Source: Bryobacterales bacterium
GTDB lineage: Bacteria; Acidobacteriota; Terriglobia; Bryobacterales; Bryobacteraceae
Assembly (NCBI GenBank): GCA_963819185.1
Contig: CAWFVG010000003.1
Location: forward strand, 223,984 to 287,983
Reading direction: 5' to 3'
DNA length: 64,000 nt
The translations under genes and the position numbers were made by a program. A model generated the notes under the pieces. The model was not told the origin of the DNA, did not search any database, and was given only the letters and a program-made list of their open reading frames with translations. Below are positions 2,488 through 30,786 of the stretch, in pieces. Every line of letters starts with the position of its first letter. The first letter of the stretch is position 1.

Positions 2488-2514
2488 CTATTTCAACAGA
2501 CTTTCTATTTCAAC
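2488..2514. repeat. Direct repeat CTATTTCAAC x2 (period 17) in an AT-rich 46-bp intra-operon spacer
   Basis: Copies at 2488-2497 and 2505-2514 are identical. On the coding (minus) strand they read TTGAAATAG twice. Possible internal promoter or RBS context. Confidence 0.6.
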
Positions 2515-2521
2515 GGGTTCT

Positions 2522-3541
2522 CTACTTGAGCAGTTGCAGCGCCGCTTCCGCCACTTGAGCCGTTTCCACGCGAGTCATGCAGCGATGGTCAATCGGGCAT
2601 TCGCGCTTCAAACACGGGCTGCACTCCACCGCCTGCCGCACCACCCGAGCCAAAGGACCGGTTGGGCCCGTGGTTAAATGGTTGGTCGATCCGAACACCG
2701 CCACCGTCGGCACGCCCAGCGCGGAGGCGATGTGCATCGGCCCCGAGTCGTTGGTTAAATACACCCGGCACGCCGCGGCCAGCTCGATGAACTCGGCAAG
2801 ACTCGTCTGGCCCGCAAAATTGCGCACTGGCGCTTCTATGCCCGCCGCGACCTCCTTGCACACCTCGCTCTCAGCTTGCGCTCCGAAGATCGCCACGCTC
2901 GCGTCCAATTCGTGTGCCAGCCGGTTCGCCGTCTCCGCAAAACGCTCCGGCAGCCATCTCTTTGCCGAGCCATACGCAGCTCCGGGGCTCACTCCGATCA
3001 CCGGCCCCTCCATCCCGAGCCTCGCGAATCGCGCCACCCCCTCCTCGCGGGCCTTCCCCGCCCCCTCCAAGCGGATCGCCTCGCACTCCGGAAGCGTCTC
3101 CAGAATGCCCGCCCGCCGCAGCAACTCCAGATAGTAGAACCGCTCATGCTCCGGAATCTCGTGCGGCTTCGGCGTAGGAATCGCGCGCGTCAGCAGCCAA
3201 CTCCGCCCGTCTCTGGCGTACCCGATCCGTTCCGGTATCCGCGCCATCCAGGCGACGGCCGCCGCATCGAACGCGTTCTGCAACAAAATCGCACAATCGA
3301 AATTTCGCGACGCCAGCTCCCGAGCCGCGCGAATCTTCGCACCGGCTCCCTGCGCCGTGTAAGGGATCATCTCATCGCAGAAAGATTCGCGAGCATACAG
3401 ATCCCCCACCCACGGCTTGGCCAGAATCGAAATCTTCGCTTTCGGGAATCTCTCCCGCACCGCCCGCAGCGCGGGCAACGACATCACCGCGTCCCCTACC
3501 CAATTGGTCGCGCGGACTAGAATCGAGCTGTACTCCACCAA
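2522..3541 (-). CDS. Glycosyltransferase family 9, heptosyltransferase II (WaaF)-like
   Basis: 339 aa. ILVRATNWVGDAVMSLPALRAV and YLTNDSGPMHIASALGVPTVAVFG are GT9 signatures. Start is TTG 3541 or GTG 3538. Confidence 0.9.
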   Translation of the reverse strand: MVEYSSILVRATNWVGDAVMSLPALRAVRERFPKAKISILAKPWVGDLYARESFCDEMIPYTAQGAGAKIRAARELASRNFDCAILLQNAFDAAAVAWMARIPERIGYARDGRSWLLTRAIPTPKPHEIPEHERFYYLELLRRAGILETLPECEAIRLEGAGKAREEGVARFARLGMEGPVIGVSPGAAYGSAKRWLPERFAETANRLAHELDASVAIFGAQAESEVCKEVAAGIEAPVRNFAGQTSLAEFIELAAACRVYLTNDSGPMHIASALGVPTVAVFGSTNHLTTGPTGPLARVVRQAVECSPCLKRECPIDHRCMTRVETAQVAEAALQLLK

Positions 3542-3681
3542 TCTTTAGAGTAACGGCCCGCAGTCGCTCGTGGAGTTCGGGGTGATGAAATAGATTTGGT
3601 CGATCCTCTAACGGCCCCTAGGGGCTGGCGGATTCAGAGCATTGATGGCTGATCGGCCACACCTGGACGTTCGCCGCGTGG

Positions 3682-5301
3682 CTATGCGGGGTCGACCTCC
3701 GGAAACTCAGCCAGGAGATCACCAAAATCCGAACCCGCAGTTCCGTCCCCATCCTCCAGGTCTTCGTCGTCCCCGTATTCGAAGGTCGGTCGTTGAGAGG
3801 TTGCTTCCAGTTCATAGAAACTCACGTCGTGTGAGCGGAGAATCCGAAAAAATCGATCAACCTGAACGTAGTCCCCACCCCCGGCGGCTTGGAGCCAGCC
3901 TTTATGAATCGCTTCGTAAGCCAAGAGCCAATGTTCCGAATAGAGATGCTCAGCGCTCATGTACGAACTCCAAAGATCGGTGTCCAGAGTCGGCAACAAT
4001 CCCTCAGACTCTAGGTGCAAGGCCGTCAGCGCTACAAGATCGTCGTCCATTAACGCGATGGCCTCGACCGCTGCTTCCCCGAGGAGGACGTTCTGGCTCT
4101 TCGCGACCCATAAAGCCCAGAGCACCTCATTGCCTTGCTGAAGTTGAGCATGATGAACGCAGACTGCATCCAACGTGGCCTTTAATGCGGAAGCGTTGAT
4201 CGGGCTCGATGAATTGAGCTCTAGAATGTCGAACAGAACCTTGAGCGTTGCCGGCTCTGCAATGACGGATCTAAGCAAAAGAGCTTCACATAAAGGCCAG
4301 TTATCGCCGTCGATAGCAGCGGTGCCGACCATTCGGGCGGCGTATGTTAGAACATTGTCATGCGGAAACTGTCTGGCCAAATCCGAGGCGGCTCCGAACA
4401 ACTCAAGGAGTTGCGTCTCTTGCCTTGTCCCAGCAGCGTTAAGGCCGCGCGACCGAAGTTCAGGTTTCCACTGGGGCTCTAGAGCCTCTGGTAATTGGCT
4501 GATCTCGGTCTTAAAATCGTTAACTTCCAACTCGAGGGAAACGCCGACCTCATGGAGCGCGGCCAGTGCTTTCTCTGCCTCCTGATAGGAGTCAAAGTAC
4601 AGGTGAAAATCATCGATATATCTTGTACCAGAAAGAGGTCCGAGCCGTGATTCGAGTGCGCAATCAACGGCGGTGCCGACGATTTCGCCCACAAGGAAGG
4701 AGGTATCTGGACCGATTGGAATTCCTCCAGTTTGCTTGTCCTGACTTTCCCTTATACGCTCATCGATTCGATTGCCAAAAAGCGTCGCATCTTTCCTGGC
4801 TTGCGCCTTCCCGTGGATCGCCCACGGTATCGCATGAGTGTAGATCGAGGGGTAAAATCGGCTGAAATCAGCCTGTAGAACATAGCGCTTTCCGACAGAT
4901 CGAAGCGCTCGCGCGCGGGGCAGCTCGGATTTTGGGCGCTGGCTCTCAAGCGCGCGGACCGTTCCAATCACGGGGCGGCTAAGGGATATGGTGGAACGAG
5001 CGCAAAACTGGTCTAGACTCTTCCAGTGCTTCGCCAACTCACGGGAAACAAGTACGTGATGAAGCGGATTCGGAAGGGAAAGCAGCCTTCGCGAGAGCTT
5101 CCGCTTGGGCACCGAATGCCGCGCGGTGCGCGCACGCGGAAAATTTGCGCGCTTGCCTTTCTTTACCGGATACTGGCTGCGTATATGAGTGAGAATTTCC
5201 GGATACGCGGCTCGAAGGTTGCTTACGATGAAGGGCGGGGTTAGGTGGTCGGGCAAGTAGCCGAGCTCCAGGAAGTTGAGGGTCAACTCCACGCATTTCA
5301 T
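3682..5301 (-). CDS. Stand-alone reverse transcriptase, UG/Abi (defence-associated) type with C-terminal helical domain and acidic tail
   Basis: 539 aa. Ordered RT motifs are SLPNPLHHV, LQADFSRFYPSIYTHAIPW, GIPIGPDTSFLVGEIV, RYIDDFHLYF and LEVNDFKTEI. About 250 aa of Leu/Ala-rich region follows, then the tail EYGDDEDLEDGDG. AT-richer than its neighbours. Confidence 0.85.
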   Translation of the reverse strand: MKCVELTLNFLELGYLPDHLTPPFIVSNLRAAYPEILTHIRSQYPVKKGKRANFPRARTARHSVPKRKLSRRLLSLPNPLHHVLVSRELAKHWKSLDQFCARSTISLSRPVIGTVRALESQRPKSELPRARALRSVGKRYVLQADFSRFYPSIYTHAIPWAIHGKAQARKDATLFGNRIDERIRESQDKQTGGIPIGPDTSFLVGEIVGTAVDCALESRLGPLSGTRYIDDFHLYFDSYQEAEKALAALHEVGVSLELEVNDFKTEISQLPEALEPQWKPELRSRGLNAAGTRQETQLLELFGAASDLARQFPHDNVLTYAARMVGTAAIDGDNWPLCEALLLRSVIAEPATLKVLFDILELNSSSPINASALKATLDAVCVHHAQLQQGNEVLWALWVAKSQNVLLGEAAVEAIALMDDDLVALTALHLESEGLLPTLDTDLWSSYMSAEHLYSEHWLLAYEAIHKGWLQAAGGGDYVQVDRFFRILRSHDVSFYELEATSQRPTFEYGDDEDLEDGDGTAGSDFGDLLAEFPEVDPA

Positions 5302-5405
5302 CGCATTCTCTCCAAGTTCTGATCCGTCCCACTGTGACTAAGGTATCAATGTAGCACCACAGGGGTAACCCGACCGATGCATTTCTCTGGCTTGATTTGG
5401 CTACC

Positions 5406-5425
5406 GAGCTCGGACAACCGAGCTC
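5406..5425. other. Perfect 8-bp stem/4-nt loop hairpin in the RT-nfeD divergent intergenic region
   Basis: GAGCTCGG-ACAA-CCGAGCTC read directly from the sequence. Lies about 105-125 nt upstream of the RT start codon. Confidence 0.6.
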
Positions 5426-5470
5426 CCACCCCTCGCCAACCCCTCTCCGGCGCGCTACCCTAAAGTCGGA

Positions 5471-6742
5471 ATGCGGTTTTTCTCGATCGCGCTTCTTATC
5501 TGCTCGACGGCGCTCGCCGCCGCGCCCCCTCGCGTCATCGCCGTCGACGTCGACGGCATCATCGCGCCCGTGACGGTCGAGATGATCGGCCACGCGCTGG
5601 AGCAAGCCTCCAATGAGAACGCAGCCGCAGTTCTCATGCGGCTCAACACACCCGGCGGCCTCATGGATTCGAGCCGCGAGATCACGCAGAAAATCGTCGC
5701 CTCCCGCATCCCCGTCATCGCCTACGTCACGCCCAGCGGAGGCCGGGCCGCCAGCGCCGGCTTCTTCCTGCTCGAATCCGCCGACGTCGCCGCCATGGCT
5801 CCCGGCACCAACACCGGAGCCTCTTCGCCGGTCCTGCTCACCGGCGACCTAACCGAAACCGAACGCAAAAAGGTCGAAAACGACGCTTCCGCCTGGCTCC
5901 GCAGCATGGTTTCCAAGCGCGGCCACAACGCCGACCTCGCCGAAACTACCATCCGTGAAGCCAAGGCCTTCACCGAAAAAGAATCGCTGGACGACCATTT
6001 TATTGACGACATCTCCCCCAGCGATCGCCAGTTAATGACCGATCTCGACGGCCGCACCATCAAACGTTTTGATGGACGCTCCGAAGTCCTCCATACCGCC
6101 GGCGCCGACATCGTCGAATATCAGCCCTCCACGCGGGAGCGCATCGTCTCCGCCGTCTCCGATCCCAATACCGGCTTCATTCTTCTCGCGCTCGGCGCGC
6201 TCGGCGTCTATGTCGAATTCTCTTCGCCCGGCCTGATTCTGCCTGGCGTTGCCGGAGGCATCATGTTCCTCCTGGGCCTCTCCTCGCTCTCCGTGCTGCC
6301 CATCAACTGGATCGGAGCCGCGCTGCTGCTGCTCGGCGCGGTGCTGCTGATTCTGGAAGTCAAGTTCACCTCGCACGGAGTGCTCGGCATCGGCGGCACG
6401 GTTTCCATGGTCCTGGGAGCCCTGCTGTTGATCAACGGTCCCCCCGAAGTGCGTATTCACCTCTCCACCGCCGTGGCCGTAACCATCCCCTTCGCGCTCA
6501 TCACCATCTTCCTGGTCACTCTGGTCGTGCGAGCCCGCCGCAACAAAGCCATGATGAGCAACGGCGGCCTGCTCAATCAGCTCGGCCAGGCCCGCACCGC
6601 GCTCGCGCCGGCCGGCACCATCTTCATCCACGGCGAATATTGGGACGCGGTCTCCTCCGCCCCGGTCGAGCCCGGCGGCAACGTTCGCGTAATCTCGGTT
6701 GACGGCTTGAAACTCCGCGTCGAACCGGTCGCCAAGAGCTGA
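5471..6742 (+). CDS. nfeD: NfeD family membrane-bound ClpP-class serine protease
   Basis: 423 aa. Signal peptide, LNTPGGLMDSSREI and GGRAASAGFFL (ClpP-like), a central multi-TM block and a C-terminal OB-like domain. Confidence 0.9.
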   Translation: MRFFSIALLICSTALAAAPPRVIAVDVDGIIAPVTVEMIGHALEQASNENAAAVLMRLNTPGGLMDSSREITQKIVASRIPVIAYVTPSGGRAASAGFFLLESADVAAMAPGTNTGASSPVLLTGDLTETERKKVENDASAWLRSMVSKRGHNADLAETTIREAKAFTEKESLDDHFIDDISPSDRQLMTDLDGRTIKRFDGRSEVLHTAGADIVEYQPSTRERIVSAVSDPNTGFILLALGALGVYVEFSSPGLILPGVAGGIMFLLGLSSLSVLPINWIGAALLLLGAVLLILEVKFTSHGVLGIGGTVSMVLGALLLINGPPEVRIHLSTAVAVTIPFALITIFLVTLVVRARRNKAMMSNGGLLNQLGQARTALAPAGTIFIHGEYWDAVSSAPVEPGGNVRVISVDGLKLRVEPVAKS

Positions 6743-7048
6743 CTCCGCGCGATTTATTTCTCGCCTCCGATCACGCGGTTAGCGGTTCAACTCATCCCCG
6801 CCGAGGCACTTCCCGGATATTTTGTAGCCAAGAGTCCGGTCCCCTCATCGGTTCCGGATCACGCTAGCGCAGGAGAGCAACCGCGGCAACCCTGTGCGAC
6901 CGTCACACGATGAGCCGAGCCGTTGCGGTGCAGCGGCCCCGTTTCCGGTTGGGCGTTACAAACCGGACAAGAGGCCTCTTCGAAATACAAAGGAGTCTGA
7001 GGGAAGCGGAAAAAACTCCCGCCTGAAGCGGATATCATTCTTTATGGG

Positions 7049-7915
7049 ATGAAACCCGCCCAATCCACCTCCGTGGCAGCGCTGAACCGCGATGAGTTCG
7101 CGCGCCTGCGCCAGCTCTCCGTCCAAATCCGCCTGAACGCTCTGCGCATGGTCTCCATCCAGGGCTTCGGCTATCTCGGGCAGGCGTTCTCTTCAGCGGA
7201 AATCTTCGCCGTATTGTTCGGCGGCGATTTCCTTCAATTCGGCGAGGACCGGTTCGTGCTCTCGCCCGGCCACTACGTCGTCTCACTTTACGCCGTGGCC
7301 GCCGAAGTGGGCCTCCTCGATAAGCACGCGCTTTCAACTTACGGCGCCGACGGATCGAAGCTCGAAGCCATCGGCACGGAGCGCACGCCTCTGGTCGACC
7401 TGGTCTGCGGATCGCTGAGCCAGGGCTTATCCGCGGCCATCGGTTTCTCCATCGCATCTAATCTCGCCGGCCAGCATCGAACCACTTGGGCGTTCCTGAG
7501 TGACGGCGAAATGGAAGAAGGGCAAGTTTGGGAGGCAGCCATGTTCGCCTTCCACAATCGCGCCCGCATGGACCCCCTCGTCGTAGTCATCGACGCGAAT
7601 AATTCGCAGGTGGACGGCCCGGTGGCCTCCGTCACCACTCTGGAACCTCTTGCGGAGAAATGGCGAGCCTTCGGCTGGCAAGTCGCCGACGTCGACGGTC
7701 ACGATGTGGAAGCCCTATGCCGCGCGCTAAACGATGCGCTGAACGGCCGCCAGCACAATGCTCCTTTCGTCCTGATCGCCCGAACCGAAACCTCGGGCCG
7801 TCTTCGCTCCATCCCCCAGGATGCCGACGGGCACTTCATCAAACTCGACCCGGCGCTGGTGCGCGCCCTGACCGAGGAATTGCAGGCTCAGCTTGGCACG
7901 CGACGAAATGTTTGA
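7049..7915 (+). CDS. Transketolase, N-terminal (TPP-binding) subunit
   Basis: 288 aa. SPGHYVVSLYA, GSLSQGLSAAIG and LSDGEMEEGQVWEA are typical of split transketolase subunit A. Confidence 0.9.
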   Translation: MKPAQSTSVAALNRDEFARLRQLSVQIRLNALRMVSIQGFGYLGQAFSSAEIFAVLFGGDFLQFGEDRFVLSPGHYVVSLYAVAAEVGLLDKHALSTYGADGSKLEAIGTERTPLVDLVCGSLSQGLSAAIGFSIASNLAGQHRTTWAFLSDGEMEEGQVWEAAMFAFHNRARMDPLVVVIDANNSQVDGPVASVTTLEPLAEKWRAFGWQVADVDGHDVEALCRALNDALNGRQHNAPFVLIARTETSGRLRSIPQDADGHFIKLDPALVRALTEELQAQLGTRRNV

Positions 7916-8942: not shown

Positions 8943-9803
8943 ATGTCACTCACCAATTTTCTCCCCACGCCCAACTTCGACGAATACAAGGAGCGGTTCA
9001 AGCACCATTACAAGCTGGACCGCCGCGAAGACGGCGTCCTCCTGGTTCAAGCTCACACCGAGGGCGGGCCCATTCAATTGAGCGTCGAAAATCATCGCTC
9101 CGTCGGCCAGCTCTTCAAAACTGTCGGCGCGGACCCCGATAACGAGATCATGATCTTCACCGGCAGCGGCAAGGAGTTCATGATGGACTCCGATCCCGCC
9201 GGTTTCAAACTGGAAGAACAGGACCTGGATTATTGGGCTTATGAATACGCCTACAAAGACGGGAGAATCAACGTCAGTTCCTTGATTAACGACCTCGAAA
9301 TCCCCACCATTGGCGCGTTAAACGGCCCCGGCTTTCATACCGAGCTGTGTCTTATGTGCGACATCTCCATCTGCACCGAAGACACGGTGATTTTCGATCT
9401 TCACTACGACATTGGCTCGGTGCCCGGCGACGGTATTCATAGTTGTTTCCAGGAACTGCTCGGCGTCAAGCGCGCCGCCTACGCGCTGCTCACCGGCCAG
9501 GCCATCGACGCGAAGACCGCGCTCGAATACGGAATGGTCAACGAAATCGTGCCGAGAGAAAAACTCGTTGAGCGCGCGTATCAAATCGCGGACCACATCA
9601 TGACCCAGCCCCGCACCACCCGCCGCCTCACCACGCAAATCGTGCGCCGCCCGTGGCGCCAGCGCATCACCAACGATCTCGACGGCGGTTTCGGCATCCA
9701 GATGTTCGGCCACCTGGCCAAGAAGAAAGCCATGCACGGCCGCAAGCATATCGGCTCCACGGTCGATTACGTCCGCCAGGGACGCAAGAATAATTTCGAC
9801 TGA
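8943..9803 (+). CDS. Enoyl-CoA hydratase/isomerase (crotonase) superfamily protein
   Basis: 286 aa. Crotonase-like layout (IMIFTGSGKEFM, ALNGPGFHTELCLMCDI, LLTGQAIDAKTALEYGMVNEIV). Confidence 0.75.
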   Translation: MSLTNFLPTPNFDEYKERFKHHYKLDRREDGVLLVQAHTEGGPIQLSVENHRSVGQLFKTVGADPDNEIMIFTGSGKEFMMDSDPAGFKLEEQDLDYWAYEYAYKDGRINVSSLINDLEIPTIGALNGPGFHTELCLMCDISICTEDTVIFDLHYDIGSVPGDGIHSCFQELLGVKRAAYALLTGQAIDAKTALEYGMVNEIVPREKLVERAYQIADHIMTQPRTTRRLTTQIVRRPWRQRITNDLDGGFGIQMFGHLAKKKAMHGRKHIGSTVDYVRQGRKNNFD

Positions 9804-9822
9804 GCCGCTACAACAGCAGCCG

Positions 9823-10983
9823 TCAGAACAATTCTTTGCTGGCCAGCGCGGCGCCCTCCACCAGCGATTCGAACTTCGCCCACATCACCGACATGGGCAC
9901 CCGCTCGATGATGTCCAACTGCGCGAAGCCGCAATCGGTCCCGGCGATCACATTCTCCGGACCCGCGGCCTCCGCGTATTTGACGATCCGGTCCGCGACC
10001 ACGCGGGGATGCTCCACCGTCACCGTATGGTGCGTGATGACTCCCGGAATCAAAATCTTGCCCGCGGGCAAGCGTCCGTTCCGCCACACGCGCCATTCGT
10101 GCTCATGCCGCGGATTGGCGGCCTCAATCGAATAAGCTCCGGCCCGCACTTGAGTGATGAACTCTACCACTTCTTCCATCGGCGCATCCGCCACGTGCGG
10201 CACGTGCCAACTTCCGAAGCACACGTGATAACGCACGCGATCCTCCGGAATGCCGCGCAACGCATGATTCACCGCGTCCACCCGCAACTGCGCCCATTCG
10301 CGATACCGCGCCGGGCTCTGCTGCACCAGATGGTCGTACATGTTCGCGAGCACCGCGTCATCCACTTGCAGCAGCAATCCCGCTTGATAAATCTCCAGAT
10401 ACTCCTGCCGCAGCGCCTCCGCGATCGCAAAGATGTACTCTTTCTCGGAGCCGTAGAACTCGTTCACGCCGTCGTACGCCGTGCTGGCCGGCGCCACCGC
10501 CGTGAGGAACGCCTCTTCCACGTTGACCTCGCCCAGCGCCGACTGAAAATTCTTGATCGCCTGGCGAATCGGCTCCCGGTCCCGGTATTCAATGGGACCG
10601 ACGCAAGCCTCGGTCGGACGGCCTGTCAATGCCATGGGCATGTCCCGCGCGATCGCCTCCGGAAACCGCTCCAGGTCCCGGCCCAGCCACTCCACCGGCC
10701 GCAATTGATCCGGCCGTATTTCGAAGCCGGTGATGCGGTTCAAAACGTAGTTTGACCAGCTCGACTTTCCGTACTCGCCGTCGCTGATAATGTCGATCCC
10801 GACGGCCGCCTGCTTCCTGACCACGTCGGCTGTCGCGCGCTTCACCGCCTCCTCGTCGTGAGTTGTTCTGAGTTCGGGAGGACGCACCAGGCTTCCCACG
10901 TGCGTCGTTAGAATTCGCTTCGTGCTTCGTTTCATGGTTGAGTTTTCGGAATGCTGTTTGGGAAGAATATCACGGCGGCTCAT
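9823..10983 (-). CDS. Cobalamin-independent methionine synthase II (MetE C-terminal-like) family protein
   Basis: 386 aa. RILTTHVGSLVRPPEL, ISDGEYGKSSW and HVCFGSW..H with a C-terminal GTDCGF resemble the MetE catalytic-domain family. Confidence 0.8.
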   Translation of the reverse strand: MSRRDILPKQHSENSTMKRSTKRILTTHVGSLVRPPELRTTHDEEAVKRATADVVRKQAAVGIDIISDGEYGKSSWSNYVLNRITGFEIRPDQLRPVEWLGRDLERFPEAIARDMPMALTGRPTEACVGPIEYRDREPIRQAIKNFQSALGEVNVEEAFLTAVAPASTAYDGVNEFYGSEKEYIFAIAEALRQEYLEIYQAGLLLQVDDAVLANMYDHLVQQSPARYREWAQLRVDAVNHALRGIPEDRVRYHVCFGSWHVPHVADAPMEEVVEFITQVRAGAYSIEAANPRHEHEWRVWRNGRLPAGKILIPGVITHHTVTVEHPRVVADRIVKYAEAAGPENVIAGTDCGFAQLDIIERVPMSVMWAKFESLVEGAALASKELF

Positions 10984-24422: not shown

Positions 24423-25041
24423 ATGCCGCGCATCGTCATTGCCGACGACCACCTTCTCATGGCCCAAGGCTTGGCGAAGTTGTTGGCGGAGGATTTTTAC
24501 GTGGCGGCGGCGGTAAACAACGGGCGGGACTTGCTGGCGGCCGCGGCCAAGCATACCCCTGACCTGGCTTTGATGGACGTTCTGTATGCCGGAGATGACC
24601 GGCGTGGAGACCGCACGCAAACTCCGCCGCGTCGCGCCGCTCTGCAAGGTCATTCTGATCAGTATGTATGGCCAGGCCGAGTTTGTACGGGAAGCGTTCA
24701 GCGCGGGCGCCTCCGGTTATCTGTTGAAATCTTCCGCTAGCGCGGAACTCCATGGCGCCATCCGCGAAGTAATGGACGGAAACGTCTACGTCAGTTCCAT
24801 GATCGCCAGAGATGTTCTGGCGACCCTGCTGACGCCGCCTCCGGCGGCTCTAAGCCCGCGCGAGCGCGAAATTCTGGCGCTGGTGGCGGAGGGATGCTCC
24901 GCCAAGGAAATTGCCGGGCGTCTGCACATCGCCGTGAAGACCGCCCAATTCCACCGGACCAATATCATGACCAAGCTCGGGATTCACTCCACTGCGGAAT
25001 TGACCAAGTACGCGCTGGGTCACGGCATCGTCTCGTATTAA
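24423..25041 (+). pseudogene. NarL/FixJ-type response regulator (REC + LuxR/GerE HTH) split by a +1 frameshift just after the phospho-acceptor Asp
   Basis: Frame 0 reads MPRIVIADDH..PDLALMDV. The +1 frame from 24586 reads MPEMTGVETARKL..GASGYLLK..LSPREREILALVAEGCSAKEIA. There is one extra nt within CTGT at 24582-24585. Confidence 0.75.
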
Positions 25042-25087
25042 CGATCTGTCTTTAAAGCATTCTCCGCATTAAGACGATCATGCCGTC

Positions 25088-25780
25088 ATGGGGCGAAAGC
25101 TATGCATCGCCATAGCGGTGTGGTTTGCCGCGAGTTCGTTTTCGATGTGGGGTTTTGCGGACCACGCTACAGCCGAGTATGGCTATACGAAACTGCAGGG
25201 GCACAGCGTGTATGTGAGTCCTGAGGCGATGGCGGACAAGGCGCTGATGGATCGGGTTCTGATTAGACTGGACGCCGACCTGAAGAAAATCCATGAGCTG
25301 CTCCCGCCCGCGGCAATGAAGCCGCTGGAAGAGGTCCCCTTCTTTATAGAGCGCGACAATCCAGGGATGACCATGGCCTACCATGGGCGGGCGAACACCG
25401 GAATCAACCCCGATAAGAGGGGTGCAGTCGAAATGAATAATATGCGGCAGTACCTGAACGCGGTTGCGTTCAAGCCGTTCCTGGTGCTGCACGAAATGTC
25501 GCACGCCTATCACGATCGCGTCCTGGGATTCGATAACGGCATCGTGAAGTGGGCCTTCGATCTGGCCGTGGCGAGCCATAAGTATGAAAGTGTAAGCCGC
25601 ATTGGCGGGACGGCGGGCAGAAAGGAACGGGCCTACGCGCTGACCAATTACATGGAATATTTCGCCGAAATCTCGTCATCCTACTGGGGCCGGAATGACT
25701 ACTACCCGTTTACCCGGACGGACTTGGCCGAATTCGACCCATCGGGACTGGCGATGCTTGAGAAGGTGTGGCTGAAGTAG
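25088..25780 (+). CDS. Secreted putative zinc metallopeptidase (HExxH)
   Basis: 230 aa. Signal peptide. LVLHEMSHAYHD contains HExxH. Family not recognised. The stop codon abuts the att repeat. Confidence 0.55.
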   Translation: MGRKLCIAIAVWFAASSFSMWGFADHATAEYGYTKLQGHSVYVSPEAMADKALMDRVLIRLDADLKKIHELLPPAAMKPLEEVPFFIERDNPGMTMAYHGRANTGINPDKRGAVEMNNMRQYLNAVAFKPFLVLHEMSHAYHDRVLGFDNGIVKWAFDLAVASHKYESVSRIGGTAGRKERAYALTNYMEYFAEISSSYWGRNDYYPFTRTDLAEFDPSGLAMLEKVWLK

Positions 25781-25804
25781 TGAGCCGGGCGGGAGTCGAA
25801 CCCG
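25780..25804. repeat. att repeat (distal copy of tRNA-Lys 3' end)
   Basis: GTGAGCCGGGCGGGAGTCGAACCCG is identical to 29283-29307 inside the intact tRNA-Lys. Confidence 0.9.
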
Positions 25805-25938
25805 AAGCGCGCGTTGCAGCAAAGTAAGTTGCTGATTCTCCGAAGCGCCGGAATAGCGCAAAACGTTGGTTTCGGGAATCCGTCGTACGTGTATCGTACA
25901 CGGAGCCGTGTTCAGATTCGCACCCGCCCGTCCCCTTC

Positions 25939-26300
25939 CGCATCGTTCCTACTTTTATCAGATCCGCAAACCCGCTGTAAAATTTCCGAGACGCTTCCCC
26001 CGCCCCTAAAAGTATCGCGTTGCGGTCCCTTGCGATTCATTCCTATGCCAGCGAAGAACGAATTCCAACTCCAGGGGAGAGACATCGAACTTTTGCACTC
26101 CGTGCATCAGCTTCGCATCGCCACCATCGATCACCTGGCCGCCCTCTCCGGCCGCTCTGTCCGCGCCCTCTGGGGCAGGCTGCATAAACTGGCCGAGCGC
26201 CGTTATCTCGGCCCCGTCGCGCGCTTCATGCAGAAGCACGTGTACGCCGTCGGCTCCGCCGGAGTCCCTCTATTAATAGAGGAGGGATTCGCTCCGGCGG
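25939..26300. repeat. Copy 1 of an internal direct duplication of about 345 bp (promoter + 5' part of the Replic_Relax gene)
   Basis: Aligns by eye with 27546-27880. Many mismatches and a roughly 24-nt length difference in the leader. Confidence 0.85.
25955..25983 (+). promoter_or_regulatory. Sigma70-like promoter TTATCA-N17-TAAAAT (copy 1)
   Basis: Hexamers at 25955-25960 and 25978-25983. Same architecture in copy 2. Confidence 0.4.
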
Positions 26301-26332
26301 TAAACATAGCCGAGACAAGGAGCTACTGGTAG
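26045..26332 (+). pseudogene. Truncated Replic_Relax (replication-relaxation) family gene, N-terminal wHTH part only
   Basis: 95 aa (MPAKNEFQLQGRDIELLHSVHQLRIATIDHLAALSGRSVRALW..). Matches residues 1 to about 85 of the 220-aa copy at 27625, then diverges and stops. Confidence 0.7.
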
Positions 26333-26362
26333 TAAGGCAGTCTCCTCGCGACGGCGCGAATG

Positions 26363-26908
26363 CTAACTACTTTTTTTTGACTTCGGAAATAACGCGGCGA
26401 CCTGGAGACCTGCACCCTTTGCGGTGGCAAGGGCCGACTTAAGCATCGCCGGCTGTTCTGCTCGCCACCGCTCGAACCGAGAACTAACAGCCTCTTTGAA
26501 TTGACCAATCTTCACATATCCTGCCCCGTGAACGGCGACCGCCTGGCGGTTGCCTCCTTCAGAAGAGGAAAAGAAGCGTTGGCGTTCGGTTTGTGAGAGG
26601 CTGAGGCGCCGGACGAGCCGTTTATCCTCAAGGCTATTCAGAAGGCGGACGATGTTGGCTTCGCCAAACCCTCGTTTTACCAGCAAGTCCGTAAGATCCT
26701 GCCGAAGCATGATGGTCTCGCCGTTCTCGTTCTGAAGGCCGTTTTGAAACAAGTGCCAGAGGATGATCCACTGACCGATGCTGATGCCGCACTCTTCCGC
26801 GACCCCGTTCAGCGCCGGCAGAAGATACGCCAAGCCGTCGAAGAACACATCCGGCAATACACGGTCTCCTTCTTCCCGGCGAGCCACGCACCTATTGTAG
26901 CGCGACAT
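26363..26908 (-). CDS. MarR-like winged-helix transcriptional regulator
   Basis: 181 aa. ISIGQWIILWHL..LRQDLTDLL..ANIVRLLNSLEDKRLVRR. AT-rich codon usage relative to the core genome. Confidence 0.6.
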   Translation of the reverse strand: MSRYNRCVARREEGDRVLPDVFFDGLAYLLPALNGVAEECGISIGQWIILWHLFQNGLQNENGETIMLRQDLTDLLVKRGFGEANIVRLLNSLEDKRLVRRLSLSQTERQRFFSSSEGGNRQAVAVHGAGYVKIGQFKEAVSSRFERWRAEQPAMLKSALATAKGAGLQVAALFPKSKKSS

Positions 26909-26920
26909 TCAATAGTTCAG

Positions 26921-26948
26921 TTGACTAAAGTCTTTTTAGAGATATACT
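26921..26948 (+). promoter_or_regulatory. Sigma70-like promoter TTGACT-N16-TATACT
   Basis: Hexamers at 26921-26926 and 26943-26948. Divergent from the MarR-like gene start (26908). Confidence 0.5.
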
Positions 26949-27025
26949 ATTCAGGAATGCACACTGCATCCGTTACTGCGAGCCAAGGGATGACTATGCC
27001 AGCGCGAGTCGGCCGTTCGTAGTAT

Positions 27026-27054
27026 AAAGCCCACGAGTCAGATTCGTGGGCTTT
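27026..27054. terminator. Perfect 11-bp stem/7-nt loop hairpin (terminator or attenuator-like)
   Basis: AAAGCCCACGA-GTCAGAT-TCGTGGGCTTT. A/T tracts on both sides. Lies about 75 nt downstream of the TATACT box. Confidence 0.5.
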
Positions 27055-27094
27055 GACGCTCGCTACTGCGAACGGCCGGAAACATGGAGGGCCC

Positions 27095-27313
27095 ATGCGT
27101 CCAGTTGAGGAAGTACCAGCAACCGCTCCGCGGACGCTTTTCGACAGTACGTCCGCTCCCAATCCTTGTCAAATAGACTCCCAGAGCCCTGAGGCTCCTG
27201 ACGCTCAGCAGGGAAATCTTGAGTGGCGAATTCGGAAAGGCCTCATCGTTGTACGCCGCGAAGAGTTGCCCGGGGGCGGTCAACGCCACGCCTTCAAAAA
27301 CTTCTTGCCATGA
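27095..27313 (+). CDS. Hypothetical protein (72 aa)
   Basis: GGAGG SD (27086-27090) 4 nt before the ATG. ATGA overlap with the next ORF suggests a translationally coupled pair. Confidence 0.45.
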   Translation: MRPVEEVPATAPRTLFDSTSAPNPCQIDSQSPEAPDAQQGNLEWRIRKGLIVVRREELPGGGQRHAFKNFLP

Positions 27314-27522
27314 CTACGATAAAAGCGCCCGAGCCCAATGGCCGCCTTAGGCAGCATGACACCGTCGAAATACTTCTCGCGGCGGCGCTGGAACGCGCAA
27401 GATATAGTAGGGACACACAGTTCGTGTATTACTATGAACGCCTCCTTATGGAGTCCGCCACTATACCGCTCTGGCCACCTGAAGAAAACGGCCGCGTTGT
27501 GAAAGCAGCCCCCCTGCGCTGA
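27310..27522 (+). CDS. Hypothetical protein (70 aa)
   Basis: MTTIKAPEPNGRLRQHDTVEILLAAALERARY... Start overlaps the stop of the previous ORF (ATGA). Confidence 0.45.
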   Translation: MTTIKAPEPNGRLRQHDTVEILLAAALERARYSRDTQFVYYYERLLMESATIPLWPPEENGRVVKAAPLR

Positions 27523-27545
27523 TGGCTACGTAGATCTTGGCACTC

Positions 27546-27880
27546 CGCAATTCCGCTCTTATCAGATCCGCAAAGCCGTGGTAGAATCACCGGGACGCTT
27601 CCCCGCCGGTCCTTATGATTCCCCATGCCAGCGAAGAACGGATTCCAACTCCAGAGGAGAGACATCGAACTTTTGCGCTCCGTGCATCAGCTTCGCATCG
27701 CCACCATCGATCACCTGGCTGAACTCTCCGGCCGCTCCGTTCGTGCCCTTTGGAGTAGGCTGCATAAGCTCACCGAGCGGCGCTATCCCGCATCCGTTGC
27801 CCGCTTCATGCAGAAGCACGTTTATGCGATCGGCTCCGCGGGATTCCAGGTATTAATAGGGGAGGGCTGCGCACCGGCGG
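27546..27880. repeat. Copy 2 of the internal direct duplication
   Basis: See 25939-26300. Includes promoter TTATCA-N17-TAGAAT (27559-27587) with TGn extended -10. Confidence 0.85.
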
Positions 27881-28287
27881 ACCTCAGGGAGAAACGCATC
27901 CGGCACTCGCTGTTCATCGCGGACATCCATACACAGCTCTTGCTCCTCACGCGCACGGGGCCTATCACTCTCACCCGCTGGCAGGAAGGATCTGCCTTAT
28001 GGGACTCCGTTCCCGGCCGCGCCGGTGAAGACGCGATCCCGATCCGTCCCGATGTGTACTTCATCCTGGAGCACGCAGGACGGCCAAGGGAGAGAGATAA
28101 ATTTCATAGTTTCTTGGAAGCGGATCGATCGACGATGAACCATGATCGGATGGCAGCGAAGATCGAGGGCTACGTCCAACGGCGGCTGGATGCCCGGAAA
28201 TATCCCGGCCTGCATTCCTTCATCGTGGCCACCGTGACGGCGACCCGAGCCCGCGCCGAAGAGTCCGGAAAGATCTGCTTCCCCTGA
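27625..28287 (+). CDS. Replic_Relax (replication-relaxation) family protein
   Basis: 220 aa. N-terminal wHTH (DIELLRSVHQLRIATIDHLAELSGRS) and IRPDVYFILE..FHSFLEADRSTM nuclease-like core, as I recall for this family. Confidence 0.65.
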   Translation: MPAKNGFQLQRRDIELLRSVHQLRIATIDHLAELSGRSVRALWSRLHKLTERRYPASVARFMQKHVYAIGSAGFQVLIGEGCAPADLREKRIRHSLFIADIHTQLLLLTRTGPITLTRWQEGSALWDSVPGRAGEDAIPIRPDVYFILEHAGRPRERDKFHSFLEADRSTMNHDRMAAKIEGYVQRRLDARKYPGLHSFIVATVTATRARAEESGKICFP

Positions 28288-28411
28288 TCCCCCGTGCCGC
28301 CGCACGCGAGGCCTACCTCTTCATCCCTTCGAGCAGCTTACGCTCGCTACACTCTTGCCGAAAGCCGCGGGCAACGCGGCGCCGTGAACTGTCGCTCTCA
28401 AGCGCGATCCG

Positions 28412-28678
28412 TTACCGGTACGTCTTCTCGGATTTCAGCGCCACCCATGCCACGTCGACAATGCGTTGCTCGCGATGAGGAAAGAAAATAATCCGGTAGT
28501 CGCCCGTGCGCTTGCGATAGTAGCCCTTCCAAGCCTTGCCCTGGAGCGCCTTCACGTCGCCCTGGAACGGGTCGTGCTCCATCTGGCTTATACTCCGTAT
28601 GACTTGCCGCCGAGCCTTTTCAGGAAGGCCATCTATGAAAGCCTGGGCGTCGTCAGCGACCCTAACGACCCAATTCAT
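28412..28678 (-). CDS. Type II toxin, RelE/ParE family
   Basis: 88 aa. ..DPFQGDVKALQGKAWKGYYRKRTGDYRIIFFPHREQRIVDVAWVALKSEKTY is the classic RelE/ParE fold pattern. Confidence 0.8.
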   Translation of the reverse strand: MNWVVRVADDAQAFIDGLPEKARRQVIRSISQMEHDPFQGDVKALQGKAWKGYYRKRTGDYRIIFFPHREQRIVDVAWVALKSEKTYR

Positions 28679-28943
28679 GCTTTACGTCGCGCCACAACTT
28701 GAAGCGACCTTGCTTGATCTGTTTCATGCCGCGTCTCACCATCTTCCCTTCCTGCGGCGTGAGGACCGTGTCATCATCCACCAAACGTTTTGCTTTAATC
28801 AGCACGCCGCCCGGCTTTTGGGTGAAGGCCACGAAATCGCCCTCTTGGATGTTGAGGGTCTCCAGGAACTCGCGAGGGATCACGACCTGCCGCCGCTGCC
28901 CCACGCGCCCGATCTTTTCAGTTGTGGCCGCTTTGCTTGCCAT
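28662..28943 (-). CDS. Type II antitoxin, AbrB/MazE/SpoVT family
   Basis: 93 aa. GQRRQVVIPREFLETLNIQEGDFVAF (swapped-hairpin motif). 17-nt overlap with the toxin gene. Confidence 0.8.
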   Translation of the reverse strand: MASKAATTEKIGRVGQRRQVVIPREFLETLNIQEGDFVAFTQKPGGVLIKAKRLVDDDTVLTPQEGKMVRRGMKQIKQGRFKLWRDVKHELGR

Positions 28944-29082
28944 GCCTTCAGATTATCTGATCGACAGAAATTGTCAAATTGCAAAGGCTTCCGAAACCTT
29001 TGCGGCGACGGTCTCGTTATCTAAGCATGGCATATAGCGTCCGAAAGACCGGGCATTCATGAAGACCATACCCATCCCGCTA

Positions 29083-29196
29083 CTACGCCGCATTTTGAAC
29101 TCCTTCGATCCAAACCGGACACCGGCGCGCGTCCAGTTTGAGGTAGCGGTCCGCGTGCGGACAGGATCTTTTGTGGCGTCGATACAGCGTCAGCAT
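29083..29196 (-). pseudogene. Tyrosine integrase remnant (N-terminal 37 codons only)
   Basis: MLTLYRRHKRSCPHADRYLKLDARRCPVWIEG resembles the Cys-rich N-terminus of tRNA-targeting integrases. No catalytic domain in any frame downstream. Adjacent to tRNA-Lys. Confidence 0.5.
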
Positions 29197-29280
29197 ACTC
29201 CGGCCTTGGCCCGAGTATCGTACCCTATCGTACGCGGCCAAGGGGAGAACCCTATCCTGCTGATTGCGCGTAAAAAACGG

Positions 29281-29356
29281 TGGTGAGCCGGGCGGGAGTC
29301 GAACCCGCGACCACCGCATTAAAAGTGCGATGCTCTACCAACTGAGCTACCGGCCC
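29281..29356 (-). tRNA. tRNA-Lys: tRNA-Lys (anticodon TTT), CCA encoded
   Basis: Reverse complement is GGGCCGGTAGCTCAGTTGGTAGAGCATCGCACTTTTAATGCGGTGGTCGCGGGTTCGACTCCCGCCCGGCTCACCA. Cloverleaf checked by hand (7-bp acceptor with one G-U, CTTTTAA anticodon loop, GGTTCGA T-loop). Confidence 0.93.
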
Positions 29357-29427
29357 GCGTTTGAGGTGTGGTCCTTTATGATAACGGTCCCGCGCGCTCC
29401 GCGTCTCGCTGTTATTGCTCCCGGCGT

Positions 29428-30786
29428 CTATTGTTCCCAACCGCCGCCCAGCGCGTTGTAGATTTGCACCAGCGCGAGCCGCTCATTCAGCCGGGCGCGC
29501 GCGAGGTTCAGTTGAGCCGCGAAATAGTTGGTCTCATTGGTGAGGACTTCGAGGTAACTCGCGGCGCCGCCGCGGTAGCGCACTTCAGAGAGATTCGCGG
29601 CGCCCTGCGCCGCGGTGGTGAGGAGATCCTGGTGCTCGCGGAAATCGCCGGATTTCGTGAAGGTGATGAGCGCATCGGAGACTTGGCGGAAGGCCTGCTG
29701 GATGGTCTCCTGGTAAGTGAGCAAGGCCTGATTCTGTTGCGCCTGCGCCAGCTTCAGATTCGCACGAAGCCTGCCCGCGGTGAAGATCGGCTGGGTGAGG
29801 GGCGCGCTGAAGTTCCATGCGGCGCCGAGAAAAAGGCTGGCCAGGCTGTTGCTCTCCGCGCCGCCACCGCCGGTCAAAGGAAGACTGGGAAAGAATTGCG
29901 CGCGCGCGACCCCGATCTGCGCATTGGCGGCAATGAGCTGCTGTTCGGCTTGCCGGATATCGGGACGGCGCTCGATCAACTCCGACGGTAAGCCGGCCGG
30001 AACAGCTTCGGGCAGCGGCTGCTCCGTGAGGGGAAGTCCGCGCGGGATGTCATGCGGATTCTCGCCCATCAGCGTGCTTAGCAGATCCTCCAGCATCGAG
30101 ATTTGGCGCTCCGTGTCCGGAATCGTCTCCGCGGCGGTCTCGACTAATTGTTCGGCTTGGCGCACGTCGAGCAGGCTGGTGGCGCCGCCGCGCTCCAGCG
30201 TATCGGTGAGCTGGAGTGACTCCTTGCGTGAGGCAAGCGTGCTCTTGGCGATATCCAGTTCCAGATCCAGTTCGCGAAGCTGAAAGTATGCCGTCGCGAC
30301 ATTTTGCACCACGGTGCTCAGCACCAGGTCCCGGTTCCAATCCGTGGCCAGCAGGCTGGCGCGTGCGGCTTCGGTGGCGCGGCGGTACTGTCCCCAAAAA
30401 TCGAGATTCCACGAAAAAGCGCCTTGCAACTCAAACGCCGCGAAACCGAACGCGGGAATTTTTTGGCCGATGCCTCCGGCCACGCCATTGACCTGCGGAA
30501 ACTCCTGGCTTCGCGCCACAGTCACCTGCGCTTGAGCCTGCAAAATGCGGGAGGCCGCGATGCGGACGTCGTAGTTCTGGTCCAGCGCGGTGCGGATCAG
30601 TTTCTGAAGTTCGGTGTCCTGAAAAACGGTCCACCATTTCTGGCTGCCCAGCGACGCCGCAGCGGAGGGCTGTTGATCGCCATTACGAAAGGATTGCGGA
30701 ACGTCGACAGTAGGGCGGCGATAATTCGGGCCGACGGTGCAGCCGGCGAGCAGCACGCTGGCTGCCAGTAGCGCCGGGGCCCTCAT
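29428..30786 (-). CDS. RND efflux outer-membrane factor lipoprotein (NodT/OprM family)
   Basis: Start at internal ATG 30786 (MRAPALLAASVLLAGC lipobox), ATGA-coupled to the RND pump stop. TolC-like repeats. The upstream part of the ORF is shadow. Confidence 0.9.
   Translation of the reverse strand: MRAPALLAASVLLAGCTVGPNYRRPTVDVPQSFRNGDQQPSAAASLGSQKWWTVFQDTELQKLIRTALDQNYDVRIAASRILQAQAQVTVARSQEFPQVNGVAGGIGQKIPAFGFAAFELQGAFSWNLDFWGQYRRATEAARASLLATDWNRDLVLSTVVQNVATAYFQLRELDLELDIAKSTLASRKESLQLTDTLERGGATSLLDVRQAEQLVETAAETIPDTERQISMLEDLLSTLMGENPHDIPRGLPLTEQPLPEAVPAGLPSELIERRPDIRQAEQQLIAANAQIGVARAQFFPSLPLTGGGGAESNSLASLFLGAAWNFSAPLTQPIFTAGRLRANLKLAQAQQNQALLTYQETIQQAFRQVSDALITFTKSGDFREHQDLLTTAAQGAANLSEVRYRGGAASYLEVLTNETNYFAAQLNLARARLNERLALVQIYNALGGGWEQ

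Follow-up and report, generated by a model that had tools for sequence, protein, structure and literature searches.

The window analysed here, a stretch of 64,000 nucleotides from a Bryobacteraceae-like acidobacterium, very probably carries a single-gene anti-phage reverse transcriptase (RT) of the DRT6 (UG12) type, a class-1 UG/Abi RT encoded on a ~1.9-kb insert between the LPS-core gene waaF and nfeD. DRT6/UG12 is already known as a family of single-gene bacterial anti-phage RTs that was named in 2022 and biochemically characterised in 2025. A preliminary description of the locus had proposed a stand-alone UG/Abi defence-type RT, and the gene is indeed class-1, with an RT core joined to an alpha-repeat (aRep) domain and neither a partner gene nor a non-coding RNA (ncRNA) found at the locus. 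The same description had held its class to be unassignable and had suggested an undescribed subgroup of Acidobacteriota; neither view stands, as profile, pairwise and structural comparisons all lead to DRT6/UG12. The gene and its parts are the following:

3682..5301, minus strand: reverse transcriptase gene assigned to the DRT6 (UG12) family (ORF of 539 aa plus stop; PADLOC, PDB and Foldseek matches; pN/pS)
4432..5301, minus strand: RT fingers/palm domain, aa 1-290 (motif positions, AF2 secondary structure, RVT_1)
3814..4425, minus strand: C-terminal all-helical aRep domain, aa 293-496 (AF2 helices; alignment with DRT6 and DRT4)
3685..3813, minus strand: flexible C-terminal tail, aa 497-539 (AF2 pLDDT, conservation, residue counts)
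5302..5450, minus strand: upstream region with ribosome-binding site and hairpin (sequence reading)

The ORF begins with an ATG, and all of the motifs from which an ordered RT set and an acidic tail had been recognised were located in the order originally given: SLPNPLHHV (aa 75-83), VLQADFSRFYPSIYTHAIPWAIHG (141-164), GIPIGPDTSFLVGEIV (193-208), TRYIDDFHLYF (226-236, with YIDD at 228-231), LELEVNDFKTEI (256-267) and the acidic tail (507-530). The fingers/palm domain holds the motif A aspartate, Asp145, and the motif C YIDD (nt 4609-4620); residues D145, D230, D231 and K264 are invariant among 110 homologues, and the protein keeps every family-invariant residue. Pfam RVT_1 spans aa 109-268 at 26.6 bits, under its gathering score. 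Motifs and AF2 secondary structure reveal no thumb, maturase or endonuclease domain in the protein, and the place of the thumb is taken by the aRep domain (described in PMC12783706), which aligns with the aRep domains of DRT6 and DRT4. The AF2 monomer model (pLDDT 90.4, pTM 0.90) places helices at 293-490 with pLDDT above 90, in agreement with the helical C-terminal region first read from the sequence.

Membership of DRT6/UG12 is established by profile, by pairwise sequence and by predicted structure. The profile search proposed in the preliminary description returned PADLOC Drt6 (PDLC03748) as the top match, at 511 bits (E=1e-153) and practically end to end (profile positions 6-484 of 511). 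A sequence search of the PDB placed the Sphingopyxis sp. DRT6 (UG12; PHR10625.1; PDB 9wy8) first at 1.2e-86, with DRT4 at about 5e-19, and a search with the family profile gave 2e-122 and 1e-47, respectively; by BLASTP the two DRT6-type proteins are 36% identical over 508 aa. The structure prediction and comparison that had likewise been proposed agree, the top Foldseek match being 9wy8, entitled 'Cryo-EM structure of the hexameric DRT6' (E 1.9e-33, TM 0.85/0.92, rmsd 2.3), ahead of DRT4 (TM 0.76/0.82), AbiK and Abi-P2 (about 0.5-0.65), and group II and DRT9 RTs (below 0.4). The Sphingopyxis enzyme is thus the best match by every measure, and the two proteins have in common thumb-less RT fingers and palm, an aRep domain and a disordered acidic tail, as well as being encoded by a single gene without ncRNA. 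They differ at 64% of residues, in the aromatic residue about 13 aa past the aRep domain (Tyr in the window, Phe in Sphingopyxis), in the tail, which is shorter and less extreme in the window than the poly-Asp/Glu run of the Sphingopyxis protein, and in host phylum, Acidobacteriota as opposed to Pseudomonadota.

A new, Acidobacteriota-specific subgroup of UG/Abi RTs, perhaps differing in product or mechanism, is very unlikely, although identity to the tested DRT6 is no higher than 36%, the nearest named relatives are mostly Acidobacteriota metagenome-assembled genomes (MAGs), no NCBIfam model is reached at its cutoff and RVT_1 stays below its own. The RT belongs to a set of about 980 clusters (50% identity, E<=1e-30), a count that probably takes in neighbouring class-1 UG/Abi groups, and many of these clusters come from Acidobacteriota; because hundreds of them sit at the same 35-40% distance, an identity of 36% is normal inside the family. 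Moreover, existing DRT6-type PADLOC models match over the full length at 500 bits, the predicted fold is nearly superposable on that of DRT6, and the two have their domain plan, tail and invariant residues in common.

The locus itself points to acquisition of a bare gene. The insert and the elements that border it are the following:

3560..5450 approximately, no strand: ~1.9-kb lower-GC insert between the divergent waaF and nfeD promoter regions (empty-site relatives, GC)
3543..3556, minus strand: native waaF-proximal promoter-like element, CCGTTACTCTAAAG (conserved in RT-less relatives)
5452..5465, plus strand: native nfeD-proximal promoter-like element, GCGCTACCCTAAAG (similar element in L001)

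The comparison of the waaF-nfeD junction among relatives, also suggested at the outset, was made in four related Bryobacterales genomes (L001, L003, L004 and L005), and in all four waaF and nfeD adjoin without RT or remnant; a 528-bp spacer at this site in L004 was tested as an RT remnant and rejected. Because the site is empty in these four genomes, the RT is regarded as a single-gene acquisition of ~1.9 kb. Its left boundary is good to about +/-10 bp, homology with L003 stopping near 3558, and the right one is less certain. The CCGTTACTCTAAAG element is kept directly upstream of waaF in the RT-less L001, L003 and L005 and lies outside the insert, and RT-less L001 carries a similar element, CGATACTCTGGAAG, upstream of nfeD, so that GCGCTACCCTAAAG is no part of the insert either. 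A 'CGCTACTCTAGAAG'-like motif on both sides was considered as a duplication and rejected, as it is native upstream of both genes in RT-less relatives too, and a 24-nt imperfect direct repeat (3551-3574 / 3609-3632, 75%) is confined to one flank and probably due to chance. The insert shows neither target-site duplication nor terminal inverted repeats, and the search revealed no long or significant boundary inverted repeats around the RT.

That the gene forms an AT-richer islet, as the preliminary description had remarked, is borne out by base composition. The GC content is 0.550 for the RT gene and 0.554 for 3561-5445, whereas waaF has 0.643, nfeD has 0.639 and the window averages 0.614 +/- 0.022. 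No other 1620-bp stretch of the 64-kb window has a lower GC content than the gene, and only 0.3% of them are as low; GC3 is 0.59 in the gene, and the neighbours have 0.78 and 0.81. The flanking genes encode GT9 heptosyltransferases and NfeD, native housekeeping genes that adjoin in RT-less relatives as well. None of ten flanking proteins gave a significant defence-model match, and the gene lies outside any defence island at its locus. No integrase, transposase or cas gene occurs within about 7 kb of it inside the window, as had been noted before; on the source contig, beyond the window, an IS110 transposase lies ~5.5 kb past the RT stop. Elsewhere, homologues of the RT adjoin HNH genes, type III CRISPR genes, DUF4365, PemK/HipA/BrnTA toxin systems, IS elements and integrases, and such neighbourhoods are those of an accessory gene.

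The flanks agree with a stand-alone gene, for which no partner gene or ncRNA was found at the locus. The upstream region contains a GGAG ribosome-binding site (Shine-Dalgarno) at 5310-5313 and an 8-bp hairpin (5406-5413 / 5418-5425), its RNA fold is not significant (z = -1.53), and shuffled sequences fold as well as the flanks on either side of the gene. A search of 2500-7200 against Rfam, with permissive E-values, yielded no match to an intron, msr/msd or other RNA, a terminator scan around the RT gave nothing useful, and the flanks have no DNA similarity with the contig of the closest homologue.

Isolation from other defence genes, foreign base composition and a sigma-70 scan that recognised no promoter upstream (0 sites, in a scan that acidobacterial promoters fit poorly) could also describe a silent or decaying passenger gene without current defence function in its host. 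Such a gene is improbable, in view of the intact frame, the full set of family-invariant residues and the good ribosome-binding site. It is further opposed by the strong purifying selection under which the gene stands relative to its closest homologue (78% identical; pN 0.14, pS 0.77), and by the recovery of the identical protein in three further sequencing runs.

Scarcely probable, too, is that the intact DRT6-type gene is instead a DRT4 (UG15) system, which is the label that a PADLOC run might give. Two PADLOC models labelled 'Drt4' (PDLC02177 and PDLC02179) score 504 and 477 bits on it, and DRT4 (E. coli WP_031606642.1; PDB 9vdo, 9vdv, 9l9s, 21ou), a single-gene, protein-primed and template-independent ssDNA polymerase whose overall mechanism is thought common with DRT6, is the second-best fold match and has the same domain plan. 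However, in a calibration with the genuine Sphingopyxis DRT6 these two models gave 509 and 729 bits, and the true DRT4 models about 205-253. As this is the score pattern of the window's RT, to which the true DRT4 models give 190-230 bits, both high-scoring models are really DRT6-type, and automated DRT4/DRT6 calls can consequently be swapped, since two Drt4-labelled models of PADLOC v2 are affected. Furthermore, identity to DRT4 is about 21%, the NCBIfam Drt4 equivalog reaches 216 bits against a cutoff of 450, and the priming Tyr125 of DRT4, which lies in the palm and is absolutely conserved in 174 DRT4 systems (PMC12783706), aligns, by pairwise and profile alignment alike, with Arg122, which lies in a variable column.

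More distant are the lactococcal and P2 abortive-infection RTs AbiK, Abi-P2 and AbiA (PDB 7r06-7r08, 8oz7), a class that performs protein-primed random ssDNA synthesis. They have in common with the window's enzyme a class-1 RT plus aRep, a likeness that includes the FYPSIYTH-type block following motif A, but sequence alignment is confined to the RT core (about 130 bits), the aRep domains are divergent and TM reaches 0.5-0.65. Identity as AbiK was rejected accordingly (profile 131 bits, RT core only; no conserved counterpart of the priming Tyr in the N-terminal fingers loop). The reading as the RT of a retron, group II intron or DGR with overlooked remaining components can practically be dismissed: RT-core similarity is weak, the NCBIfam models for group II and retron St85 RTs giving 36 and 27.6 bits where 300 and 235 are required, query-normalised TM stays below 0.4 for RTs of all three kinds (about 0.3 for the DGR RT), the C-terminus is an aRep domain without maturase or endonuclease, the Rfam scan recovered no intron or msr/msd, and, as previously noticed, long inverted repeats, TR/VR-like direct repeats and an Avd-like neighbour were not found.

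For the DRT6 family, UG12 protects against T5 and ZL-19 in a manner that requires the RT active site, and DRT6 has been described as acting by abortive infection, as oligomeric, as producing template-independent protein-linked DNA, as triggered by ORF55 and as toxic without sbcB. Within the family, anti-phage protection and hexameric protein-primed ssDNA synthesis are known for the Sphingopyxis DRT6 only, and with 36% identity to this tested protein the product type, oligomeric state and trigger of the window's RT are therefore extrapolated. The mechanism likely follows that of Sphingopyxis DRT6 and E. coli DRT4 (PMC12783706), to judge from homology. By this analogy, the protein would form a hexamer arranged as a dimer of trimers, which would constitutively make random-sequence ssDNA without template, with one of the protein's own hydroxyl residues as the starting point, so that the DNA would remain covalently bound to it. 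A host 3'-5' exonuclease of the ExoI type would keep the attached ssDNA short, until, upon infection, a phage ssDNA-binding protein similar to T5 ORF55 would shield the 3' end and allow ssDNA to accumulate; the build-up would then lead the infected cell to die or arrest, as in abortive infection.

The residue from which synthesis would start is probably different from that of DRT4. As primers, a DRT4-like Tyr125 was rejected on account of the Arg122 in its place, and so was an AbiK-like Tyr44, the Tyr44 of the present protein not being conserved in the family; the priming positions of AbiK (Tyr44) and Abi-P2 (Tyr61) are thus without a conserved counterpart. The best candidate, as judged by conservation, is Tyr509 (nt 3775-3777), which is followed by a 30-aa acidic stretch. 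The tail in which it sits has 15 D/E and 1 K/R among the last 43 residues of the protein, and AF2 assigns residues 511-535 a pLDDT below 50, consistent with disorder. Y509 is kept in 106 of the 110 homologues (96%) though the region is otherwise unalignable, and in 26 of the 110 the protein ends at, or <=2 residues from, this position. In many relatives the acidic tail ends in an SSB-like hydrophobic tip, which in some closely reproduces the C-terminal tip of SSB (e.g. ...DDDDLPF).

Priming from tyrosines of a C-terminal tail has a precedent in DRT9 (UG28), which uses Y496/Y498, is restrained by ExoI and is triggered by the same T5 protein; DRT9, however, belongs to class 2 and depends on an ncRNA template for its synthesis of poly-dA, whereas the RT of the window lacks a detected ncRNA and its TM to DRT9 is 0.3. 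In favour of Tyr509 as primer are its high conservation and the precedent of DRT9. Against it, the aligned residue in the validated Sphingopyxis DRT6 is Phe, and many tails in the wider family end in Phe rather than Tyr; because of these Phe residues, an aromatic anchor fits better than a hydroxyl donor. Tentatively, and with rather low expectation, the disordered C-terminal tail of the DRT6 family is put forward as an undescribed functional module with two candidate roles. Tyr509 may act as a tethered protein primer, mirroring the tail tyrosines of DRT9 and replacing the palm Tyr125, and the acidic extension, by resembling ssDNA or the tail of SSB, may attract exonucleases of the ExoI type or compete for them. 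As far as checked, both the lack of conservation of DRT4's Tyr125 in the DRT6 family and the 96%-conserved tail tyrosine, followed by an acidic tail that often bears an SSB-like hydrophobic tip, are new; a search of the literature available to the analysis found no dedicated DRT6 structure paper and no mention of the acidic tail.

A gene listed in databases only as 'RNA-directed DNA polymerase', or left unnamed, is therefore very probably a DRT6 anti-phage system, which places DRT6 in Acidobacteriota, a little-studied soil phylum, and indicates that such defence systems can enter housekeeping loci as bare single genes, outside defence islands. A DRT6 family without the priming tyrosine of DRT4, and with a conserved tail tyrosine and SSB-tip-like tails, offers a concrete hypothesis on the priming site and on the control of ssDNA; if the acidic extension does act as such a mimic, the switch that sets a host exonuclease against a phage ssDNA-binding protein would be built into the enzyme itself.

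The 539-aa reverse transcriptase (RT) gene lies at 3682..5301 on the minus strand, with an ATG start and a GGAG at 7-nt spacing, and all of the motifs quoted in the preliminary description were found in its product in the same order:

aa 75-83, RT motif SLPNPLHHV
aa 141-164, RT motif VLQADFSRFYPSIYTHAIPWAIHG
aa 193-208, RT motif GIPIGPDTSFLVGEIV
aa 226-236, RT motif TRYIDDFHLYF
aa 256-267, RT motif LELEVNDFKTEI
aa 507-530, acidic tail

The protein keeps 45/45 family-invariant residues, including D145, D230, D231, and K264, and comparison of the gene with a 78%-identical homologue gives a pN of 0.14 against a saturated pS of 0.77, so that the gene is under purifying selection. The reading of the gene as an AT-richer islet also stands, as its GC of 0.550 (flanking genes, 0.643 and 0.639; mean of 1620-bp stretches across the window, 0.614 +/- 0.022) is the lowest found at that length anywhere in the 64 kb, and its GC3 of 0.59 is likewise below that of its neighbours (0.78 and 0.81).

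The general nature of the gene as an anti-phage-type RT had been read correctly from the sequence, while its class, thought unassignable by eye and perhaps undescribed, proved to be a known one, DRT6 (UG12), with defence-system profiles being decisive. The PADLOC Drt6 (UG12) model, searched as had been proposed, matches the window protein at 511 bits (E = 1e-153) over profile positions 6-484 of 511. Pfam RVT_1 reaches 26.6 bits, under its cutoff of 29.6, which explains why relatives are publicly labelled 'RNA-directed DNA polymerase' or 'hypothetical protein'. The best PDB sequence match is 9wy8, the cryo-EM hexamer of DRT6 (1.2e-86 for the single sequence and 2e-122 for the family profile), followed by DRT4/UG15 (5e-19 and 1e-47, respectively) and then AbiK and Abi-P2; a pairwise alignment of 508 residues gives 36% identity to the Sphingopyxis DRT6 that was tested experimentally. 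We consider membership of the DRT6/UG12 family highly probable.

The structural comparison points the same way. The protein was modelled with AlphaFold2 from 110 homologues (mean pLDDT 90.4, pTM 0.90); in the model a mixed alpha/beta RT region extends to residue ~290, residues 293-490 form an all-helical domain, and the tail is disordered from 511 onwards. In a Foldseek search of the PDB, 9wy8_A ('Cryo-EM structure of the hexameric DRT6') comes first (TM 0.85 / 0.92, E 1.9e-33, rmsd 2.3 A), ahead of DRT4/UG15 (TM 0.76 / 0.82), AbiK and Abi-P2 (TM about 0.5-0.65), and group II, DGR, retron, and DRT9 RTs (query-normalised TM below 0.4). The helical C-terminal domain noted from the sequence is present in the model, and DRT6 outranks AbiK, Abi-P2, and DRT9, all of which had been proposed as comparators. 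DRT4 and DRT6 consist of fingers and palm with an alpha-repeat domain in place of the thumb (PMC12783706), a plan that the window protein is predicted to share.

DRT4 identity, to which two PADLOC models labelled 'Drt4' might seem to point with 504 and 477 bits, was rejected, as the NCBIfam Drt4 equivalog gives only 216 bits against a cutoff of 450. For calibration, the Sphingopyxis DRT6 sequence, rebuilt from the PDB-search alignment, was scored on the same models, giving 603 bits on the Drt6 model, 509 on PDLC02177 and 729 on PDLC02179 (PADLOC models both labelled 'Drt4'), and about 205-253 on the remaining Drt4 models. Because this genuine DRT6 shares its score pattern with the window protein and four homologues, PDLC02177 and PDLC02179 are DRT6/UG12-type, and through this mislabelling in PADLOC-DB v2 DRT6 genes may come out as DRT4 in automated runs. 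A group II or retron RT can be dismissed, both models scoring far under their cutoffs.

A word-indexed search returned >300 homologues (one at 78% identity, about ten at 55-60%, and the remainder at 43-50%), the named ones coming from Bryobacteraceae, Alloacidobacterium dinghuense, Candidatus Acidoferrum, and other Acidobacteriota. When 1.84 billion representatives of 50%-identity clusters were searched exhaustively with HMMER, 981 matched at E <= 1e-30, a count that probably takes in neighbouring class-1 UG/Abi groups. At 35-40% identity, the distance of the characterised DRT6, there are hundreds of them, so the window protein's subgroup is one of many in a large known family and no outlier, and the suggestion of an undescribed Acidobacteriota subgroup falls away. 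The surroundings of individual homologues include HNH and type III CRISPR genes; DUF4365; a PemK toxin-antitoxin pair; IS110, a Mu-type transposase, an integrase, HipA, and a group II intron; and IS481, a Y1 transposase, patatin, and BrnT/BrnA. Such varied accessory-type contexts are what a mobile defence gene would be expected to show.

The window is a segment of a 547-kb metagenomic contig (ENA ERZ25039458). On the waaF side the RT is neighboured by two GT9 heptosyltransferases, a small conserved ORF, a PEMT-like methyltransferase, and a BlaI-type repressor, and on the other side by NfeD, a split transketolase, and an enoyl-CoA hydratase; at the position right after nfeD, no SPFH/stomatin partner gene was observed. 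With NfeD as anchor, 78 related loci were collected from species-representative genomes; those nearest to the window (NfeD 80-85% identical) belong to Bryobacterales/Bryobacteraceae MAGs of the phylum Acidobacteriota. The proposed presence/absence check was informative, as in four of these relatives (L001, L003, L004, and L005) waaF and nfeD are adjacent, divergent, and ~0-530 bp apart without the RT, and even permissive tblastn found no RT remnant at the junction. The corresponding distance in the window is 1929 bp. Homology to the relatives ends just past a conserved promoter-like element upstream of waaF and of nfeD, and these breakpoints place the insert at about 3560-5450. Given the four RT-less relatives and the drop in composition, the pattern is more parsimoniously explained by a gain of the RT in this lineage than by four clean losses.

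The insert shows neither a target-site duplication nor a terminal inverted repeat, and no tRNA, integrase, or transposase was found with it. The nearest transposase, an IS110 element (DEDD_Tnp_IS110 + Transposase_20) at 17112-18251 of L079, the source contig around the window, lies about 1.8 kb past the window's left end; some 5.5 kb, including the LPS-core genes and the BlaI-like repressor, separate it from the RT's stop. At this distance, and with native genes in between, it cannot explain the insertion. On the nfeD side synteny is also broken, since the transketolase (6743-7048) has no counterpart downstream of nfeD in the four relatives (tblastn, 1e-10). At the L004 junction, a 528-bp spacer (9416-9943, GC 0.585; other relatives, about 0-120 bp) contains neither a convincing ORF nor anything resembling the RT insert, and small insertions may recur at this junction.

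The elements bordering the insert are as follows:

3543-3556, minus strand, 'CGCTACTCTAGAAG'-like element on the waaF side, also in RT-less relatives
5452-5465, plus strand, 'CGCTACTCTAGAAG'-like element on the nfeD side, also in RT-less relatives
L001 9841-9856 and 9912-9926, L003 9981-9996, and L005 2829-2844, the element in relatives

They lie 5-22 nt upstream of the waaF and nfeD start codons, contain a TAnnnT hexamer, and may be -10-type promoter elements of near-leaderless transcripts; the RT cassette sits exactly between the two, leaving both intact. A perfect 8-bp hairpin, GAGCTCGG-acaa-CCGAGCTC, containing two SacI-type palindromes, occurs inside the insert at 5406-5425, some 105 nt ahead of the RT start; it could serve as an operator or as insulation from nfeD transcription, or it may have arisen by chance.

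The description of a stand-alone RT was borne out. Rfam at permissive thresholds gave no match in 2500-7200, the flanks fold no better than shuffled controls (169-nt upstream, z = -1.53; 149-nt downstream, z = +0.77), and PADLOC found no meaningful match among the ten proteins flanking the RT. DNA similarity to the closest homologue's contig starts 12 nt before the ATG and stops about 60 nt before the stop codon. DRT4 and DRT6 do not require an ncRNA, and, as for these, no RNA partner was detected at the locus. The window RT is a bare single-gene insertion in an acidobacterial housekeeping locus, a new member of a known family.

Elsewhere in the window, a second lower-GC patch (24900-29360, GC about 0.565) was observed:

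25088-25780 (plus), 25814-26332 (plus), and 26363-26908 (minus), ORFs without Pfam match
27625-28287, plus strand, Replic_Relax family protein (5.7e-17)
29281-29356, minus strand, tRNA-Lys(ttt), the window's only tRNA
29428-30975, OEP efflux protein ORF adjoining the tRNA

No integrase lies beside the tRNA, the adjoining ORF encoding the efflux protein; the patch may represent a small mobile element, integrated or degraded, at tRNA-Lys.

UG12 received the name DRT6 once it had been found to give moderate protection against T5 and ZL-19 that depended on the RT (PMC9226505). Abortive infection is the mode of action of Sphingopyxis DRT6, an oligomeric enzyme that makes DNA without a template as a covalently protein-bound product and becomes toxic upon T5 ORF55 co-expression or sbcB deletion (PMC12783706). 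In the model proposed for DRT4/DRT6, constitutive protein-primed random ssDNA synthesis is kept in check by ExoI until a phage DNA-binding protein shields the 3' end, ssDNA builds up, and the cell is killed (PMC12783706). By homology, the window protein would likewise synthesize random, protein-primed ssDNA constitutively under restraint by ExoI, and protection of its 3' end by a phage DNA-binding protein would lead to accumulation and cell death; we are less confident of this mechanism, at each step and in an acidobacterial host, than of family membership.

The priming residue was sought by comparison. DRT4 primes from palm Tyr125, which is absolutely conserved in DRT4 (PMC12783706). This position aligns, in pairwise and profile alignments, to Arg122 of the window protein in a column variable across the DRT6-like family, and an AbiK-like Tyr44 is not conserved in the family either; both candidates were rejected. 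No DRT6 priming residue is reported in the DRT4/DRT6 literature found. In the flexible C-terminal tail (aa 497-539, window 3685-3813, family alignment A3), disordered and otherwise unalignable, Tyr509 is kept in 106/110 close homologues. The tail stops at Tyr509 or <=2 residues past it in 26 of that set, and most others carry a highly acidic extension (median 42% D/E). The last residue is hydrophobic in 44/82 extended tails (22 Ile, 12 Phe), compared with a background frequency of 18% within tails, a difference whose nominal p-value overstates the evidence because the sequences are related. Among more distant cluster representatives (P0130-P0276), tails are mostly non-acidic and 42/103 end in Tyr or Phe. 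The C-terminal tip of E. coli SSB reads '...DFDDDIPF', and some distant tails copy it closely, such as '...WNDDDDLPF' in P0140.

Sphingopyxis DRT6 has a long poly-Asp/Glu tail that includes a Tyr, but Phe where the window protein has Tyr509. DRT9 primes from tyrosines of its own C-terminal tail, DRT4 no longer confers immunity without its last 38 residues, and SSB C-tips mediate SbcB binding, according to a DRT10 preprint. The acidic tail is not mentioned in the DRT4/DRT6 paper (PMC12783706) or the UG/Abi survey. We therefore hypothesize that Tyr509 serves either as a primer tethered to the enzyme or as an aromatic anchor, the anchor being favoured because Phe substitutions are frequent, and that the acidic tail, with its tip, acts as a mimic of SSB or ssDNA in contact with host exonucleases. 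The window RT has in this way helped to expose features of the tail at the level of the family, namely a near-invariant aromatic residue and, in many relatives, an acidic extension whose hydrophobic tip resembles that of SSB.
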